Part shown: positions 1,168 through 31,475 of the stretch, one piece after another | Layout of the letters: each line of letters opens with the position of its first letter | Position numbering within the stretch: the stretch's first letter is position 1 | Virus record (IMG/VR): IMGVR_UViG_2698536657_000023 | Coordinates: 1 to 34,820 of that record | Origin: a virus | Lineage: Duplodnaviria; Heunggongvirae; Uroviricota; Caudoviricetes | Length of the DNA stretch: 34,820 bases | Reading direction: 5' to 3' (one strand) | Made by a program: the position numbers and the translations under genes | The notes under the pieces: model-generated | Database searches by the model: none | What the model was told of the DNA's origin: nothing | Seen by the model: only the letters and a program-made list of their open reading frames with translations

Positions 1168-1846
1168 CAGCAAACCCTCAGGAGTTTCAAATAGCTGTTC
1201 TTTTTACGGAAATACTTATGAACTGGCTGGAATAAAGTGCAAGAAAATGTGACTACCCTCTCATTTTTATCTGACATGATCTGTTGCCACTCGCTGCCAA
1301 ATTGTGGCGCTAAAGCTGATTAGCACGGTGATATTTGATACTCTGGCAGACAGCAGAAATAACGGATTTAACCTAATGATGAATGACGGTAAGCAACAAT
1401 CTACCTTTTTGTTTCACGATTACGCGCAACACCCCTGAGAACCGCCATGAACAAGGGTTTCATGATTTGTGATTTTAGTTTGGTACGCAATTTGGTACAC
1501 AACACAATTTTCACTTCAGCGGGTAGTCATCAAACTCACCATAACGAGCATCGTTAATGATGTATGTGATCACCACAAATATCACATCTGGACTAGTTCC
1601 GTCTTCATGCGCAGGTATCTGTTCACGCCTCCCTTTCTGCAAATCCTAAAGATGAGATTTTGGGGTTTTGGGATATCTTTTTATCCTCAGTTCTCTATCA
1701 ATTCTACAAAGCAGTAATGAACCATCACTATGTGATAGTGAGGCATCCGCTACATTAAGCGCAGAGAAATGATGCAGTGGTGGGCGGACTGGCTTGATGA
1801 AAAGGTGGAGTGATGGTTATTCTAAATAAAAATAATGCATTAATTT

Positions 1847-1871
1847 AGCCCTTACATTATCTGTAAGGGCT
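1847..1871 (-). terminator. Stem-loop 13 nt downstream of tailspike stop; putative end of late operon
   Basis: 10-bp perfect inverted repeat agcccttaca/tgtaagggct with 5-nt loop, followed on the minus strand by a T-rich tract; not a clean U-run. Confidence 0.4.
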
Positions 1872-1883
1872 TTGCCTTAAAAA

Positions 1884-3731
1884 TTAAAAAAACTCTTTTC
1901 CTGTTGTAAACATGCCTTCGGGAAGACGCGCACCGTTAACTGAAGAAAATATAGGACCATAATATTGCTTGTTATAGCTTTGTTGAAATGAAATATATCC
2001 ACCACCATATCCGTTATCTGACATATTTACTTGCGAAAAATAACAATTAATTGTTGACGCATCAATATCTCTAAACTGCTGCATGAATCCGCATTGGCCA
2101 ACAACAACATCACCATCATCTTCTTTTTTTGTTAAAATAGGAAGGTGAATCCAGTTAAAATTCCTTGCGCTCGTAGCCATATGTGTATACACGCGCTCGC
2201 AAATAATATCATCACCAGATGTTTTATTTATTGCATAATTTGTCACGTTTGCTCCATCGCCAAATATAGTTTCAGCAACATAGCTATATGTAGATGACGA
2301 AACTGTAAGCGTTGATGCTGTATGTAGTGTTACATGCCTTGATAAGAGCAATTTAGGAGCATAACCAGAATCAAGGTTAAAGGATGCATTTTCTGTCCTC
2401 AACCTTTGAAGAAAATCACTATGACCACCATGGTATGTACCGAAGAACTTTCCAGTTGATAATTCTTTTGCAGCAAACTCTGTTGCTCCATTCCCACCGA
2501 AGTAATATGAAGGCCCCCCATTCACAAAAGGAGTTATTGTTGCTATAAAATTGTCATAATCTAGTAATTCACAACATCCAAGGCTAAAAACGTTTAGCCC
2601 AACGAGATTTGCAGGTTGAAGCGTTGTCGTATCTGTATTTTCAACTTTAAGATACCAAGTTCCTCCAAGTCCATTTATTTCAATATCAATAGGAAGTGGT
2701 GGCTGACCACCTGGTAATATTTTTGTGTCAACGATCTTTTGCGTTGTCCAGTCAGTGTTGTTTCTGCTTATTGATATTGTTACTGACTTACTTGATGCAT
2801 TAGAGCATGCAAGTCTGACATGCGCTATGCTATTTGTTAACATATATGTTACATAAGCGTTTGTGGAAATTGAATAAACTTGAGGTGTGTTAAGGGTGAA
2901 ATCACCTTGTTCTGTTTCCGCGTGTATAGCGTCATCTGTTTTAGAAAAGCCATACAATGTACTTATTTGAGATTCAGTAAATGAAGATAGGGAGACGCCA
3001 GTGTCACTTTTTGTATGTGGTGATAATTTTGCGATAACTGCATCACTTACCATATATACACTTCCAGGCCTAAAAGGTGATGCCCCGCCATAGTTATTCG
3101 AGTCTGATGGTGAAACCTCATTTGTTACTCTATGAGAAATATATTTTCCTTTCCCATGACATCTTTTACTTATAATATAAAAGTCATTAGAATTTTCATC
3201 TTTGACTATTGCTTTTATGTGTGTTGTTATTGTAGGTGATGTTGGGGGGATGATTGATGTCACAAAGTTAACATCTATAGATTTTCGCACATTAATAAAT
3301 TCATCATCTATACTAGTAATTTTATCTTTTAACGTTCCATCTTCATATCCAATATTTTCAGTCCCATCAGGACCTGCGAGAGACTTTGATAGTTGATCCG
3401 GGTCATACTTCAGAACATTCGGAAAATAGAACTGCTGCGCACCATACGCATCATAAACAGCCATAGAGTGGCCTTGCACGGTTACAAACTTGGCAATCTG
3501 TCCGTTATATACCGGATATCCAGAAGCGTTAATGATGATTGGTTGCGAAACAGGAACGTGAGAACCGTCTTCATTTTCCACATAAACCTGAATCTGGTTT
3601 TCATGATTTACCGGGTCAGTGTCAATTTTACCGATATAAATTTTACCATTAGCTACGGCTTTAAAAGAACGAGCCATAGTGAAGAGTTGCGAAGGCATTC
3701 CTATAACCACATTTGGTGTTATATTAGTCAT
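1884..3731 (-). CDS. Tailspike protein; P22/Sf6-type head-binding N-domain with divergent receptor-binding body
   Basis: Residues MTNITPNVVIGMPSQLFTMARSFKAVANGKIYIGKIDTDPVN...VLKYDPDQ match the conserved N-terminal head-binding domain of P22 gp9/Sf6 tailspike. Start set at the internal ATG (3731) preceded by AGGA; the track ORF extends to 3833 in frame. Last gene of the late operon, as in P22. Confidence 0.85.
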   Translation of the reverse strand: MTNITPNVVIGMPSQLFTMARSFKAVANGKIYIGKIDTDPVNHENQIQVYVENEDGSHVPVSQPIIINASGYPVYNGQIAKFVTVQGHSMAVYDAYGAQQFYFPNVLKYDPDQLSKSLAGPDGTENIGYEDGTLKDKITSIDDEFINVRKSIDVNFVTSIIPPTSPTITTHIKAIVKDENSNDFYIISKRCHGKGKYISHRVTNEVSPSDSNNYGGASPFRPGSVYMVSDAVIAKLSPHTKSDTGVSLSSFTESQISTLYGFSKTDDAIHAETEQGDFTLNTPQVYSISTNAYVTYMLTNSIAHVRLACSNASSKSVTISISRNNTDWTTQKIVDTKILPGGQPPLPIDIEINGLGGTWYLKVENTDTTTLQPANLVGLNVFSLGCCELLDYDNFIATITPFVNGGPSYYFGGNGATEFAAKELSTGKFFGTYHGGHSDFLQRLRTENASFNLDSGYAPKLLLSRHVTLHTASTLTVSSSTYSYVAETIFGDGANVTNYAINKTSGDDIICERVYTHMATSARNFNWIHLPILTKKEDDGDVVVGQCGFMQQFRDIDASTINCYFSQVNMSDNGYGGGYISFQQSYNKQYYGPIFSSVNGARLPEGMFTTGKEFF

Positions 3732-3922
3732 GTGTGCAATCCTATTAGACTTGTTTGATAAAGAAGATAATGGAGTTAATGCTACAAATGACGCTATTGA
3801 TTTGAAAAATGATCTTCTATTCATATTAAACACACATTAATGCAGAAAATTTGCATTAATGTAAGCAAAAAGCGCAATCAACTCCATAGCAATTTAATTT
3901 TTAACTGTAATTTACATCTACA

Positions 3923-5920
3923 TTACCATGACAACGCATCAGACTTAGCCCCCTGCGTCATAGCGTTAATGGCCTTTTGCGCCTGCTGCATGGCTTTCTC
4001 GAACACTGTTGATCCGCGTGGGGTGTTTGCCATTCGGAGCATTGCATTTCTGAATGGCTCGCTCTCATAGGCGCGAGTAAGAAGTCCGTAGCTTACTGCT
4101 GCGCCAGTTGTTGCAGGGTTCATTGCCGTCCCATACCCGATAATGAACGGGATGGTTTGCTGGCCTGTTGGTGTTGTTACTGCCGCTTTTGCAGCCTGCT
4201 GCGTGGATTGCAGGTAGTTTTTTAATCCTTTCAGATAAGCAGCGTCCTGCCCCTTAAATGTGATGCCAGTCTGGTTTTGCAGGATGTTAAGCTGCCGAAG
4301 GAACTGGTCAGGGGATCCGCCAGATTTCTCCATCGCCTTTCCAATGATGCCATTGCGCATTTGCGCCCTGCCAACACGACCAACTGAGTTATACAGCGTC
4401 TTAATTTCCGATTTGTTCTTGCTGAATAGCATGTTGTTGACAACTTCCGGCGTCAGGTCTCCTTTCATGAGAACATTCTTCAGCCTGGTATTCTTTAGTT
4501 TCGCCGCTTCGTCAGCGTAGACGGCATTGGCCTGCTGATATTTACGGAGAGTATCGTTGCCAAGATTCTGACCAATGGCACCATTGATATCGTCGGTCAT
4601 CGCCTTGTAAACACGTTGAATGGCGGCATCGGAACGGTTTGGTAACACTGGTCGCTCCCCCTTCACGTCCATTCTGAACTGGCTGCGCAGATCGCTTAAT
4701 TGCTTCAAATCCAGATTAACCGGACCATCAGGGCCAGCATTGCGAACAAGCTCATCACGATATGACTGAAGTTTTGAAATTGTCTCGTTATCAGCTACCT
4801 TACCAAGCTTCTGCAGATTAGATATTTCTGTATCAATCTGCTGAATTGCTCGCGCAGGCTGAATGTTTACTCCAGCCATAGCATTCTGAACCTGCTCCAG
4901 TCGATTACCGGCGGCACGACGAATTCCTGATGTTTTCGCTTTAAGGCTGTCAATAACAACAGATGGATCATACTCACCGAATTTATCAGCAAATCTCTGC
5001 ACCAACTGACTTCTCGCTTCCTGTTGCGTTGCTCTCATTCCGCTTGTGCCAGCCAGGGGGATATTTTCTGCTGTAGTCTGCGCCATTTTCCCGACGCGGG
5101 AAGTAGGCTGTAACAGGTCTGTGGTGTGCAGAGGAACTCCTTCACGCTCTGCAAATCTGATAGCCTGCTGCGCTTCTGGCGCAATAGCACCACGAACGCC
5201 ACGATAAGCAGCACCTAATCCACGTCCGGCAGCGTTAATAGCACCGCCAGCCAACACACCAACGCCTAAATCGGTGGCGAGTGCTTCCGCATCATCTTTC
5301 GCACTATTTGCAGCAAGTGATCCAACTGCGTTTTCTGCGAGAAGTCGTGTTGCCCCATGAGCAATTCGACCAGCAAGTGTTGGTGCCTGTGTTGCCGCCC
5401 TCTCAACGCCAGCAGGAGTGAGGTAAGGCAATGCTTCAGCAAATACCCTTCCCTCTGTCGTTTGTGGCGTCAGCGCGCCTTGCTGAAGGCCAAAGTCCTG
5501 CTCTAATCCCTGCGTTGTTACTCGTGGTGCTGGTTGATATGTACCATCGCCAATGCCGAGTTTACCGCCAGCCCAAGCCGCCGCGCTTGTTACAGCATCG
5601 GCAACTGATGCAGGTATGTTTGCCACGTTCACGCCAGCCTGCACCAGTCCGCGACCAGTCTCTTTCACTGCTTCACCAAGATCAGGCATAAATCCACTTT
5701 GCTGTGGTTGTTGCTGTGCTACTGGTTGCTGTGTCTCCACTGGCTGCACAGATGGCAATGGATAGGCTGCATAGAAAGCTTGCTTAGCCTGCTCTGCATT
5801 TTCTCCGGCTTGCGGGGCCACGACTTCATTGAAGTATTGCTCCTGAGCCTGCGCTTTTTGTTCTGGTGCTAACGCCTGATACTGTGGAGAGGCGATAACA
5901 TCTTTCCATGCTTTAGCCAT
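3923..5920 (-). CDS. DNA ejection/injection protein, P22 gp16-like
   Basis: 665-aa Ala/Gly/Gln-rich protein in the third ejection-protein position after gp7 and gp20 homologues; start overlaps upstream stop (TAATG). Confidence 0.75.
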   Translation of the reverse strand: MAKAWKDVIASPQYQALAPEQKAQAQEQYFNEVVAPQAGENAEQAKQAFYAAYPLPSVQPVETQQPVAQQQPQQSGFMPDLGEAVKETGRGLVQAGVNVANIPASVADAVTSAAAWAGGKLGIGDGTYQPAPRVTTQGLEQDFGLQQGALTPQTTEGRVFAEALPYLTPAGVERAATQAPTLAGRIAHGATRLLAENAVGSLAANSAKDDAEALATDLGVGVLAGGAINAAGRGLGAAYRGVRGAIAPEAQQAIRFAEREGVPLHTTDLLQPTSRVGKMAQTTAENIPLAGTSGMRATQQEARSQLVQRFADKFGEYDPSVVIDSLKAKTSGIRRAAGNRLEQVQNAMAGVNIQPARAIQQIDTEISNLQKLGKVADNETISKLQSYRDELVRNAGPDGPVNLDLKQLSDLRSQFRMDVKGERPVLPNRSDAAIQRVYKAMTDDINGAIGQNLGNDTLRKYQQANAVYADEAAKLKNTRLKNVLMKGDLTPEVVNNMLFSKNKSEIKTLYNSVGRVGRAQMRNGIIGKAMEKSGGSPDQFLRQLNILQNQTGITFKGQDAAYLKGLKNYLQSTQQAAKAAVTTPTGQQTIPFIIGYGTAMNPATTGAAVSYGLLTRAYESEPFRNAMLRMANTPRGSTVFEKAMQQAQKAINAMTQGAKSDALSW

Positions 5921-27998: not shown

Positions 27999-28715
27999 AT
28001 GGAAAATAAAAAATCACTGACGACAGAACAGCTGGAAGACGCTAAGCGGCTTAAGGCTTTGTATGAGTCAAAAAAGAAAGAATTGGGAATAACCCAATAC
28101 TCAATCGCTGATGAACTGGGTATCACCCAAGGAGCGGTAGGGCATTATCTTAATGGCAGAAATGCGCTAAACGTTGAGGTTGCATCTGGTTTTGCACGAT
28201 TGTTGCAAGTCTCAATTGCTGATTTTAGCCAGTCAATTGCTGCCAAGGTTGCAGAACAGGCAGAAAGCCTTAAGAGCGATGCCAACGTAAGGTATGCAGG
28301 GGAATACAGAGCAGGAAAGAGGTATCCGGTGTTAAGCAGTATCCAGGCTGGCTCGTGGTGTGAAGCATGCGAACCATACACCATTAAAGACATAGATGTT
28401 TGGCTTGAGTCTGACGCGCATATTCAAGGTAATGCGTTCTGGCTTAAAGTGGAAGGTGATTCAATGACGGCACCGGTTGGGTTAAGCATTCCAGAGGGAA
28501 CATTCGTTCTTTTCGATACCGGAAGGGAGGCGATCAACGGCAGCTTGGTCATAGCAAAACTTTCTGACTCTAACGAAGCAACATTCAAGAAGCTGATAAT
28601 CGACGGCGGAAATAAATACCTCAAGGGACTTAATCCTGCATGGCCTCTCGTGCCAATCAATGGAAACTGCAAGATTATAGGCGTTGCAATTGAGACAAAA
28701 CTCAGACTGGTTTGA
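27999..28715 (+). CDS. cI: CI prophage repressor (HTH N-domain, S24 LexA-like autopeptidase C-domain)
   Basis: 238 aa; N-terminus MENKKSLTTEQLEDAKRLKALYESKKKELG aligns with lambda CI but the recognition helix differs; C-domain has the GDSM serine and FKKL lysine; divergent from cro. Confidence 0.9.
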   Translation: MENKKSLTTEQLEDAKRLKALYESKKKELGITQYSIADELGITQGAVGHYLNGRNALNVEVASGFARLLQVSIADFSQSIAAKVAEQAESLKSDANVRYAGEYRAGKRYPVLSSIQAGSWCEACEPYTIKDIDVWLESDAHIQGNAFWLKVEGDSMTAPVGLSIPEGTFVLFDTGREAINGSLVIAKLSDSNEATFKKLIIDGGNKYLKGLNPAWPLVPINGNCKIIGVAIETKLRLV

Positions 28716-28733
28716 TCACGCAAGGGGGCGCTT

Positions 28734-29102
28734 ATGGTTGGAACCGCTATAGCAAGCTTTTTTGGGATGTTGGCAATCTCGACAATTTACGGCTTAGCGC
28801 ATGCTTTTATTGCGAAATCTCTATCAGAAAAAATAAGCCAGGCTTGGGCGCATAGATCAGCTCGTTTCATGATTCTGGTGATCATAGCAATACAAGGGAT
28901 ATCTGCATTTATCCTCTATGGATCAAGCTTATACCTATTGTATCAAGGCGCGACATTTACGCCTTACACCAGTGATTACGGAACTCTATACGATGGTAGT
29001 GAAGACATCACTGTGGCTTGGATCGTCTTTGGTTTATCTATGGCCGTGTCTGTTGTAGCAGACATCATTAAGGTAATTCTCGTCTTAACCTTCGCTGACT
29101 AA
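28734..29102 (+). CDS. Hypothetical 3-TM membrane protein co-transcribed with cI
   Basis: 122 aa with three predicted TM helices; ATG 18 nt after the cI stop with SD AGGGGG; occupies the lambda rexAB position. Confidence 0.7.
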   Translation: MVGTAIASFFGMLAISTIYGLAHAFIAKSLSEKISQAWAHRSARFMILVIIAIQGISAFILYGSSLYLLYQGATFTPYTSDYGTLYDGSEDITVAWIVFGLSMAVSVVADIIKVILVLTFAD

Positions 29103-29233
29103 CCTATAATCCCGGCAGCAATAGCTATCGGGATCCACTTCACATATCCCGCATAAAAAGCACTGAACAAGCAGACACCGAAAAAATAAATATCCTTTGT
29201 ATTCATTTGCTTATCATTATTTCATCAAAAATA

Positions 29234-29275
29234 AATACCTTGGGTATTTACACAATAAAATACCTACAGTATTCT
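29234..29275 (+). promoter_or_regulatory. OL operators and PL promoter
   Basis: Sites ATACCTTGGGTAT (29234-29246) and ATACCTACAGTAT (29260-29272) share the OR consensus; TTTACA-17 nt-TATTCT fits a sigma70 promoter pointing at N. Confidence 0.55.
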
Positions 29276-29321
29276 TTAGCCATCAGCAGGAAGCTGGAAG
29301 CCAAACGGAAAAGATTGGCAG

Positions 29322-29362
29322 GCTCTTTAACATTGATGGGATTGTCCCGCCGAAATGCGGGA
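29322..29362 (+). promoter_or_regulatory. nutL (boxA + boxB)
   Basis: GCTCTTTAACA (boxA, rrn-like) then hairpin TCCCGC-CGAAAT-GCGGGA, about 50 nt downstream of PL and 100 nt upstream of N. Confidence 0.6.
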
Positions 29363-29469
29363 ACCAAAGAGTAATTGGCTTTGGGGTGACGTGAAGTGCA
29401 GCTGCACGACGGCAACCGGAAGATAAGCACCCGGCGCGTCACCGCCAAAGTCAATCATCGGAGGTCAAC

Positions 29470-29769
29470 ATGACAGTAGTCATTACATATCTGGCTGACG
29501 ATAACGCCAGAAATCGCCGCAGAGCACGCAGACAGGCTCAACGTGAACAGGCGATGCAAGAACAGCGACTGGCGCGAAAAATTGCGCTAAAGCTCTCTGG
29601 TTGCGTCAGAGCGGATAAAGCAGCATCACTCGGAATCCTTCGCTGCAAGAAGGCAGATGAAGTCGAGAGTAAACAGAATCGTATTTACTACCGCAAGCCA
29701 CGCAGTGAAATGGGTGTGACTTGTGTTGGTCGCCAGAAAATGAAATTAGGCAGCAAACCACTTATTTGA
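29470..29769 (+). CDS. N-like transcription antiterminator
   Basis: 99-aa basic protein with arginine-rich motif NARNRRRARRQAQREQ near the N-terminus; strong SD GGAGG; first gene after PL/nutL. Confidence 0.65.
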   Translation: MTVVITYLADDNARNRRRARRQAQREQAMQEQRLARKIALKLSGCVRADKAASLGILRCKKADEVESKQNRIYYRKPRSEMGVTCVGRQKMKLGSKPLI

Positions 29770-29777
29770 GGTGATAT

Positions 29778-30248
29778 ATGACAAAATCATGGAGCGTACC
29801 TTTTCCTGAATCAGAAACTGAACATGATGGAATGCCTGTTTTCTGGAGATTCCAAGCGACAGTTGAAGAAGATGGAATCAAAATATTCGCACTTCAATAT
29901 ATAGCTTTTCATCAGACAGAGCATTATGCATGGTTGGTTCCTGCGCATTGGATTGTTAATTTTAAACCAGCACCAAATCAGTGGTTACAGGAATGGAAAC
30001 AAAGGAGAAATAGATATGCAATTAAGAAAGTAGCAAAAAATGCAGAAAGATCTTTTGCATTCCCGACGAAGAAACTTGCCATTGAAAGTTTATTGCGCCG
30101 GAAGAAATACCATTTGATGAGAATCAAACAAGATTTGGCTGTTGTATCAACTCTTGTTGATGGGATGAAGAATATTGATACATCAACACCAGGTATTGAA
30201 TATAACTTTGGACACAACCAAGAAACAGAAAACTGGGTGTTTTATTAG
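29778..30248 (+). CDS. Hypothetical Trp-rich protein, AT-rich gene downstream of N
   Basis: 156 aa; SD GAGGTGA; visibly lower GC than neighbours; soluble, basic; no recognised motif. Confidence 0.7.
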   Translation: MTKSWSVPFPESETEHDGMPVFWRFQATVEEDGIKIFALQYIAFHQTEHYAWLVPAHWIVNFKPAPNQWLQEWKQRRNRYAIKKVAKNAERSFAFPTKKLAIESLLRRKKYHLMRIKQDLAVVSTLVDGMKNIDTSTPGIEYNFGHNQETENWVFY

Positions 30249-30352
30249 TACGAATAAGCACTGTGTATTCATTCCAACGAGTGAATACACGGAGCAATGT
30301 CGCTCGTAACTAAACAGGAGCCGACTTGTTCTGATTATTGGAAATCTTCTTT

Positions 30353-30376
30353 GCCCTCCAGTGTGAGGGCTTTTTT
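30353..30376 (+). terminator. Strong intrinsic terminator (tL1-like)
   Basis: GCCCTC-CAGTGT-GAGGGC followed by TTTTTT. Confidence 0.75.
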
Positions 30377-30442
30377 ATATGCATACCAATAACGCTTCAC
30401 TCGAGGCGTTTTCGTTATGCAATCAAACAGAAGGAGCATCCT

Positions 30443-30613
30443 ATGCAACAGTTCGCTATTGCAGGGGCGGCATCGGTTCGCCCTTTCAACCCGATTTTAT
30501 CGGTACAGCATTCACGAAAAAACATTTTAACCGGAGCAGACTTTAAACAACCAAGAATGAAAAGCTTGCTCGAAAAGCTTTGGGATATTTTGAAACAACA
30601 AGGCCGTCCATGA
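30443..30613 (+). CDS. cIII: CIII-like protein (FtsH/HflB inhibitor)
   Basis: 56 aa from MQQFAIAG...KSLLEKLWDILKQQGRP, resembles lambda CIII (MQYAIAG...LIDILNQPG); SD AAGGAG; the track ORF starts upstream inside the terminator. Confidence 0.65.
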   Translation: MQQFAIAGAASVRPFNPILSVQHSRKNILTGADFKQPRMKSLLEKLWDILKQQGRP

Positions 30614-30780
30614 GTTTTACGGATAACTGGTCAGACGAAGAATTCATTCGTCAGATGAAAGATTTAATCGGTAACGAAGGAGATATTCATGTCACTTGCA
30701 ACCACAGTGAAGGAGAGCAAGTTACAGAGACGCATGTACACGCAGCAGGCGTTAATGTATCGCCAGAAGGGAGATCGTGA
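30610..30780 (+). CDS. Small hypothetical protein (kil/arf position)
   Basis: 56 aa, start coupled to the cIII stop (ATGA); acidic. Confidence 0.4.
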   Translation: MSFTDNWSDEEFIRQMKDLIGNEGDIHVTCNHSEGEQVTETHVHAAGVNVSPEGRS

Positions 30781-30869
30781 AGGTGTTCGCGTATTTTTAA
30801 ATGCGGCAAAGACTGAAGTATTAAATCAGCGTTATTTCCTTGGGCCGTGTCCATTCTGAGAACAATCAT

Positions 30870-31475
30870 ATGAGCAAAGAATTTTACGCAAGACTGGCAG
30901 CTATTCAGGAGAATCTGAACGCGCCAAAGAATCAGTACAACTCATTCGGTAAATATAAATACAGAAGCTGCGAAGACATTCTTGAAGGCGTTAAGCCGTT
31001 ACTGAATGGCCTGTTTTTATCAATCAGTGATGAAGTTGTGTTGATTGGTGATCGGTATTACGTGAAAGCCACGGCAACTATTACTGATGGCGAAAACAGT
31101 CATACGGCAACCGCTCTTGCACGAGAGGAAGAAAGCAAGAAAGGAATGGATTCTGCACAAGTTACGGGAGCTACAAGCTCTTATGCACGCAAGTATTGCC
31201 TCAATGGTTTGTTCGGCATTGATGATGCGAAAGATGCAGATACCGACGAGCATAAACATCAGCAGAACGCAGCAGCAAAGCAATCAAAACCATCACCTAC
31301 ACCTGAACAGGTTCTAAAAGCATTCACTGACGCAGCAATGCAGAAAAACACTGTAGAAGAGCTTAAACAGGCGTTCGCCAAAGCGTGGAAGATGCTCGAA
31401 GGCACACCGGAGCAGCACAAAGCGCAGGACGTTTACAACATCAGACGAGACGAATTAGAAGGAGCTGCTGCTTAA
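30870..31475 (+). CDS. erf: Erf single-strand annealing recombinase (P22 type)
   Basis: 201 aa from MSKEFYARLAAIQENLNAPKNQYNSFGKYKYRSCEDILEGVKPLL..., closely matches P22 Erf. Confidence 0.9.
   Translation: MSKEFYARLAAIQENLNAPKNQYNSFGKYKYRSCEDILEGVKPLLNGLFLSISDEVVLIGDRYYVKATATITDGENSHTATALAREEESKKGMDSAQVTGATSSYARKYCLNGLFGIDDAKDADTDEHKHQQNAAAKQSKPSPTPEQVLKAFTDAAMQKNTVEELKQAFAKAWKMLEGTPEQHKAQDVYNIRRDELEGAAA

Follow-up and report, generated by a model that had tools for sequence, protein, structure and literature searches.

A conserved gene directly behind N in HK97 and Stx phages: identity, genomic slot and possible early role of the gp45/L0079 family

What is the small AT-rich gene that lies directly behind the antiterminator gene N in this phage, does the terminator that follows belong to it, and what might its product do? 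Morons, as described for lambdoid phages, are extra genes lying between elements that are adjacent in relatives, and their usual hallmarks include a promoter and a terminator of their own. A first-pass annotation of the window (the whole 34,820-nt stretch of DNA analysed here) had suggested that the gene is a horizontally acquired moron; it could not assign the product and regarded the gene as closed by a strong, private terminator. The early-left operon around the gene comprises the following features:

27999-28715, plus strand: gene for a cI-like repressor (HTH_3 plus Peptidase_S24)
28734-29102, plus strand: gene for a 122-aa multi-pass membrane protein (PHROG 6534, unknown function), between cI and pL
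29247-29275, plus strand: pL-like sigma-70 promoter (TTTACA, 17 nt spacer, TATTCT), between cI and the nut-like site and N
29321-29362, plus strand: putative nutL-like site, from direct reading of the sequence
29470-29769, plus strand: N-like antiterminator gene, 99 aa (PHROG 271, E 2.9e-36; Arg-rich N-terminus; weak Pfam N_peptide match)
29766-29771, plus strand: Shine-Dalgarno GAGGTG, on the N stop codon
29778-30248, plus strand: N-downstream ORF, 156 aa, ATG start; HK97 gp45 / 933W L0079 / phi24B vb_24B_11c (PHROG 1636)
30443-30613, plus strand: cIII, the next gene of the pL operon (PHROG 550, E 1e-22)
30689-30859, plus strand: small PHROG 1723 gene, after cIII

Identity, distribution and composition of the gene

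The 156-aa ORF starts 8 nt behind the N stop codon, and its Shine-Dalgarno GAGGTG overlaps that stop codon within GAGGTGATATATG, in line with the earlier description of a gene that directly follows N with a good ribosome-binding signal. A consensus scan of positions 28600-31000 returned the pL-like site as the sole promoter-like site, with none between N and the ORF, and no plus-strand intrinsic terminator was detected between pL and position 30353. The nutL-like site combines a boxA-like GGCTCTTTAACA (29321-29332) with a boxB-like hairpin, TCCCGC-cgaaat-GCGGGA (29345-29362); in HK620, a putative nutL is annotated at the corresponding position, upstream of N and downstream of pL, the two being likened by position alone. 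Further along, the operon holds the genes for Erf and Abc2 (anti-RecBCD), with a gene of 127 aa between them. As a separate observation, the membrane protein gene at 28734-29102 occupies a rexB-like position, which makes it a candidate for a lysogen-expressed exclusion gene.

The protein matches the PHROG 1636 profile, which bears the label “unknown function”, with residues 1-156 of 156 positions (E 1.1e-111). Annotated genes of equal length and about 98-99% nucleotide identity are HK97 gp45 (NP_037731.1), 933W L0079 (AAD25424.1), and phi24B vb_24B_11c, the values for the HK97 and 933W genes being 97.7-98.1% at the nucleotide and 98.7-99.4% at the amino-acid level. Equivalents exist in H-19B, BP-4795, and Stx2-86, and further equivalent ORFs (98-99% identity) in Min27 and many Stx1a/Stx2a phages. 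In HK97 even the gene order is that of the window, namely N, gene, terminator, cIII. Judged from these matches, the gene is already known as a member of the HK97 gp45 / 933W L0079 family, whose members stand as hypothetical in public phage records, and the view of an unassignable gene has to be given up. A literature search on L0079, HK97 gp45, vb_24B_11c, their accessions, and phrog_1636 returned nothing relevant. Thus, HK97 and several Stx phages of medical importance (933W, phi24B, H-19B, and BP-4795) share a fully conserved, uncharacterised gene in the early-left operon.

The ORF is carried by 82 of 50,697 phage records, and 563 of 5426 complete E. coli genomes (about 10%) match the ORF query, counted at a threshold of at least 80% of a 599-nt query consisting of the ORF plus the 3' region. 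At 55-85% identity, there are homologues in Salmonella, Pectobacterium, Brenneria, Cronobacter, Rosenbergiella, and Serratia. When 1.84 billion representatives were searched with a profile, 87 relatives came up at E below 1e-3, most of them 130-155 aa long; all 73 aligned relatives (73/73) match the PHROG 1636 profile, and PHROGs 13631, 25384, and 28215 are related to this family. Only 11 plasmid records contain the gene, all typed as non-mobilisable, and the family is essentially absent from plasmids. It is phage-restricted and widespread in phages that infect Proteobacteria, phages of Bacteroidota hosts encode structural relatives, and the host span reaches from Vibrio to Cellulophaga.

Over 27 distinct alleles, 20 polymorphic sites lie in codons with synonymous changes only and 2 in codons with an amino-acid change, and none of the 27 alleles contains an internal stop codon. 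Between genera, pN is 0.21-0.27 and pS 0.70-0.89. By these substitution patterns, the 156-aa protein is real and under purifying selection. Within the gene, antisense ORFs of 79 and 57 aa are without a PHROG match, and the maximal antisense open frame in homologous genes of other genomes varies between 46 and 87 aa.

With a GC of 0.367 and a GC3 of 0.293, against a mean GC of 0.479 across the window, the ORF falls into the bottom 2.6% among all 471-nt windows of the stretch (z = -2.6); a computed composition profile thereby bears out the earlier impression that the gene is AT-richer than its neighbours. Comparable AT-richness is found only in the tailspike region (1616-4014). Furthermore, the family gene lies 4-11 GC points under its flanks in HK97, Salmonella NX263, Pectobacterium, Brenneria, Rosenbergiella, and a Vibrio phage. 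Since its GC is low with respect to the flanks in every genomic context examined, we regard this as a lasting family trait and not as a sign of recent arrival. As to the tailspike, the P22-type gene itself (1887-3824, minus strand) encodes a Head_binding domain (E 9e-65), and its receptor-binding part, with a GC of 0.368 and a GC3 of 0.255, is as AT-rich as the 156-aa ORF.

The protein and its predicted fold

The first-pass annotation had described the product as Trp-rich, basic, and soluble, and this description is accurate: the protein (18.6 kDa) contains 7 Trp, has a pI of 9.27, is hydrophilic (GRAVY -0.57), lacks a transmembrane segment, and is predicted to be soluble. An AlphaFold model built on a deep alignment (pLDDT 96.3, pTM 0.84) predicts two long strands (residues 19-30 and 33-46), further strands (50-55 and 83-86), two short helices (56-61 and 66-74), a helix of 33 residues (98-130), and, at the C-terminus, an ordered tail. 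No credible match was returned for the single protein by Pfam, NCBIfam, or PDB sequence searches, the profile of 73 members also had no PDB match, and Foldseek against BFVD retrieved uncharacterised phage proteins only. The predicted arrangement of a beta-sheet plus a 33-residue helix would be without a known relative and possibly represents a new fold. It is this combination, a confidently predicted fold without a solved relative in a gene carried by about one in ten complete E. coli genomes, that makes the protein worth attention.

The distribution of charge raises the question of nucleic-acid binding. Eighteen of the 21 Lys and Arg residues lie within residues 61-131, a stretch that includes the 33-residue helix, and K87 together with Arg or Lys at 107-109 are among the few positions kept across the 73 distant family members. 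These features, along with the high pI, favour a small, phage-internal nucleic-acid-binding protein that would modulate early transcription, recombination, or integration/excision, a reading that is the main rival to the role favoured below and that we consider possible but rather doubtful. The conserved basic residues and the basic segment fit such binding at least as well as they fit inhibition of another protein. On the other hand, neither a helix-turn-helix, ribbon-helix-helix, AP2, or arm-type signal nor any Pfam or PDB match accompanies them.

Several specific kinships were considered and rejected. An AP2 or integrase arm-type domain, to which the motif 'SRFAF.TKeeA...RK' had pointed, received an hhalign probability of 0.09% against an Int with an arm-binding domain. 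A confident match to a regulator such as Ral, which would have told against the earlier reading of the gene, was looked for and is absent: the hhalign probability against Ral is 0.13%, the two proteins belong to different PHROGs, and the ORF co-occurs with ral in phi367. Kinship to lambda SieB or to the superinfection exclusion protein gp17 of PA28 reached 0.7% each, and the values for N, Ea10, and HkaQ were all below 1%. Apparent domain fusions among the HMM matches (P0056, P0080) turned out to be repeat artefacts. Among the PADLOC defence profiles, the sole match was Cas1_II (E 0.018, 12 bits), which was taken as noise.

The terminator block and the N-to-cIII slot

Downstream of the ORF, four features need to be distinguished:

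30253-30419, plus strand: conserved lambdoid non-coding block of ~165 nt, common to lambda, HK620, HK75, and HK97; right boundary of the cassette
30261-30292, plus strand: 14-bp hairpin in the conserved block (dG -21.9 kcal/mol)
30353-30376, plus strand: predicted intrinsic terminator, homologue of tL2A (GCCCTC-cagtgt-GAGGGC, then T6; dG -11.1 kcal/mol)
30391-30416, plus strand: terminator-like hairpin, homologue of tL2B by the annotation of HK620 and HK75

In alignments with phages that lack the ORF, homology begins 5-10 nt past the ORF stop, at GAATAA, and extends to cIII. The tL2A-like hairpin, 104 nt past the stop, lies inside this block, and tL2A and tL2B of HK620 align base for base with positions 30353-30376 and 30391-30416, respectively. 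HK75 is annotated with two terminators in the block, and the HK97 record lists a 'putative terminator' after gp45. Lambda contains the same sequence, including GCCCTCcagtgtGAGGGC, after ral and before ea10, and the second hairpin between ea10 and cIII. The insertion of ea10 separates the two terminators of lambda; in the window, HK620, HK75, and HK97 they stand side by side. The block terminators of lambda correspond to the classical tL2 terminator cluster. Compared with the ORF, the block is roughly four times as widespread, being found in 2238 versus 563 of the 5426 E. coli genomes and in 368 versus 82 phage records, and the ORF occurs in about a quarter of the elements carrying it.

By these alignments, the terminator is the shared lambdoid tL2A and not the 156-aa gene's own. 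The idea of a private terminator does not survive this comparison, as the hairpin sits in a block common to ORF-less phages and is tL2A in HK620. A GC hairpin followed by T6 is indeed present at 30353-30376, but the epithets “strong” and “textbook” overstate a 6-bp stem, which makes an ordinary terminator. The annotation should be corrected such that the terminator is part of the tL2 block, the right boundary of the variable N-to-cIII slot, instead of being ascribed to the gene. The hairpin sequence of the window recurs 104 nt after the stop in 48 of 85 ORF-containing loci examined, and most of the other downstream variants examined retain the GCCCTC/GAGGGC stem, with loops CAGTGT, CTAATG, CCGATG, or CAGTGCGT; an invariant stem with a varying loop is the pattern expected of a functional hairpin. 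A literature search on tL2a yielded unrelated papers only.

The part of the block upstream of tL2A (30253-30352) deserves a remark of its own. It is strongly structured, with hairpins at 30261-30292 and 30291-30332 (z = -5.2 for the whole 3' region), is 95-99% conserved in the 2238 of 5426 E. coli genomes, and lies between ral and ea10 in lambda. It has no Rfam match, and the prophage sRNA papers checked do not cover the region; it may serve as a processing site or give rise to an RNA derived from the 3' UTR.

The slot between N and this block varies in content among phages:

lambda: N, sieB (opposite strand), ral, block
HK620: N, hkaQ, hkaP (opposite strand), block
HK75: nun, then the block directly
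933W: N, L0079, ea10, cIII
PA28: N, hypothetical gene, ORF, gp17, cIII
611R6: N, ORF, hypothetical gene

This comparison of intervals agrees with the earlier placement of the gene among the accessory genes of a variable N-to-cIII region, which holds sieB and ral in lambda, hkaQ and hkaP in HK620, and nothing in HK75. Like the ORF, lambda ral and sieB, P22-type gp17, and HK620 hkaQ are small, dispensable, and situated in the variable slot of the pL operon, but none of them has a sequence relationship to it (hhalign all below 1%). Moreover, phi367 carries both the ORF and ral, and PA28 both the ORF and gp17; the ORF is therefore no allelic alternative to these two genes.

From the junctions, the mobile unit is recognisable as ~490 bp consisting of the Shine-Dalgarno sequence and the ORF only, without a promoter or terminator of its own. 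Its left end reads ATTATTTGAGGTGAkATATG, and at least five different left junctions are found. HK97, 933W, and PA28 possess other N genes, yet 55-80 nt of the 3' end of the window-type N are kept upstream of the ORF; in other loci, the left break is at GCAGCAAACC or ATTATTTGAGGTG. In the window an intact N precedes the gene, whereas upstream of the copies in HK97 and 933W only a 3' remnant of that N type is left, and by virtue of this remnant the N-ORF linkage of the window looks ancestral. In HK97 and 933W, ~55 nt of the window N 3' end (window 29716-29769) survive as a non-coding spacer before the ORF. A pattern search of IMG/VR for an empty slot, in which a window-type N is joined directly to the block, found none. 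In phi367 the cassette comes after ral, and a copy of the opening ~17 nt of the tL2 block, GAATAAACAC.GCACTG, borders it at either end. Such direct-repeat flanks, seen at the phi367 locus (2400-2960), are also present in several IMG/VR loci, and the repeat looks like a footprint of cassette insertion.

Is the gene, then, a moron? Two features of morons are found: extra DNA where related phages have neighbouring elements, as illustrated by HK75, where nun stands directly before the block, and a deviant composition, which is off from the flanks in every context. In addition, the same slot of lambda holds sieB. All this would suit an acquired gene that is expressed from the prophage and confers an exclusion, defence, or fitness trait on the lysogen. 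In contrast to morons, however, the ORF has neither promoter nor terminator of its own and is part of the repressible pL operon, in which it begins 8 nt after N, downstream of pL, with the shared tL2A behind it. Furthermore, its product has no transmembrane segment, no credible PADLOC match, and no similarity to SieB or gp17, and while lambda sieB and HK620 hkaP are on the opposite strand, the 156-aa gene is on the pL strand. What stands of the proposed horizontally acquired moron is thus a discrete cassette of extra DNA with deviant composition, and what falls is the autonomy of its expression; a moron in the classical sense appears very improbable to us.

Early expression and candidate roles

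Since the cassette brings no promoter or terminator and no intrinsic terminator was detected from pL to tL2A, the ORF would be co-transcribed with N. In the model that we favour, it is transcribed from pL together with N as an immediate-early message, possibly with translational coupling to N, so that the ORF product and N would be the only two proteins made from pL ahead of N-mediated antitermination, and both would be silent in the lysogen. Within the AT-rich ORF, transcription may be subject to Rho-dependent termination.

The family members always occupy accessory regions for early functions, recombination, or integration, where they share the strand of the recombination or integration genes. 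For instance, the family gene is the first of the early operon in Salmonella NX263, near the operon start in Vibrio PvVp04, and upstream of RecT, YqaJ, and SSB in Rosenbergiella. In metagenomic prophages it is found downstream of RecT and YqaJ or near int, and in prophages of Pectobacterium and Brenneria at the operon's far end, immediately before xis-int, which implies that not all members of the family have immediate-early timing. A comparison of divergent loci brought up no partner gene that recurs. With respect to the nucleic-acid-binding reading, the adjacency of relatives to RecT/YqaJ/Erf, ParB-like, Xis, and Int genes and the coverage of very different hosts speak in its favour, whereas the dispensability of the gene, which is missing from most lambdoid phages with the same block, and the want of a consistent companion gene speak against it.

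Our best guess, put forward tentatively, is that the 156-aa protein is a dispensable, early, host-directed protein, acting as a counter-defence or host-takeover factor. Its position, timing, dispensability, phage restriction, and neighbourhood favour such a role, and Ral, Gam, Abc2, Kil, and CIII, its neighbours by operon class, all work in that way. Support also comes from Abc2 in its own operon, from the methyltransferases near relatives described below, and from a 2026 preprint in which the lambdoid recombination locus is described as an anti-defence hotspot. Homology, fold matches, and publications were searched for a tie between the protein and any activity, and none was found. Arguing from neighbours carries little weight in this case, since regulators and genes of DNA metabolism are found in early accessory regions as well. 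In addition, the breadth of the family, whose hosts range from Vibrio to Cellulophaga, speaks against a target restricted to a single defence system.

A related possibility is a host-killing or growth-arresting early protein, comparable to Kil, without any counter-defence role. The ORF shares operon and timing class with kil, its product is small, basic, and non-essential, and its restriction to phages (with only the 11 non-mobilisable plasmid records as other carriers) would agree with such a role. Its stable carriage in about 10% of complete E. coli genomes points the other way, though such carriage would be expected anyway if pL is repressed. On balance, a Kil-like protein seems unlikely.

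Returning to the host-directed role, one may speculate further, if with considerable reserve, that the gp45/L0079 family and PHROGs 13631, 25384, and 28215 together form an unrecognised class of early effectors with a new fold, which in lambdoid and Stx phages would be made with N before antitermination and would neutralise a broadly conserved host function or defence. If the protein is indeed a counter-defence or takeover factor made alongside N, screening the gene by knockout or by expression would be attractive and cheap.

As for the methyltransferases, orphan DNA methyltransferases are encoded 1-3 genes away from the family gene in Pseudomonas Medea1, Pantoea Nafs113, and two P0093-encoding loci. 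This proximity may be due to chance or may be a weak sign of an anti-restriction neighbourhood. The enzymes beside these distant relatives are of the adenine or the cytosine type, and int or xis is often nearby.
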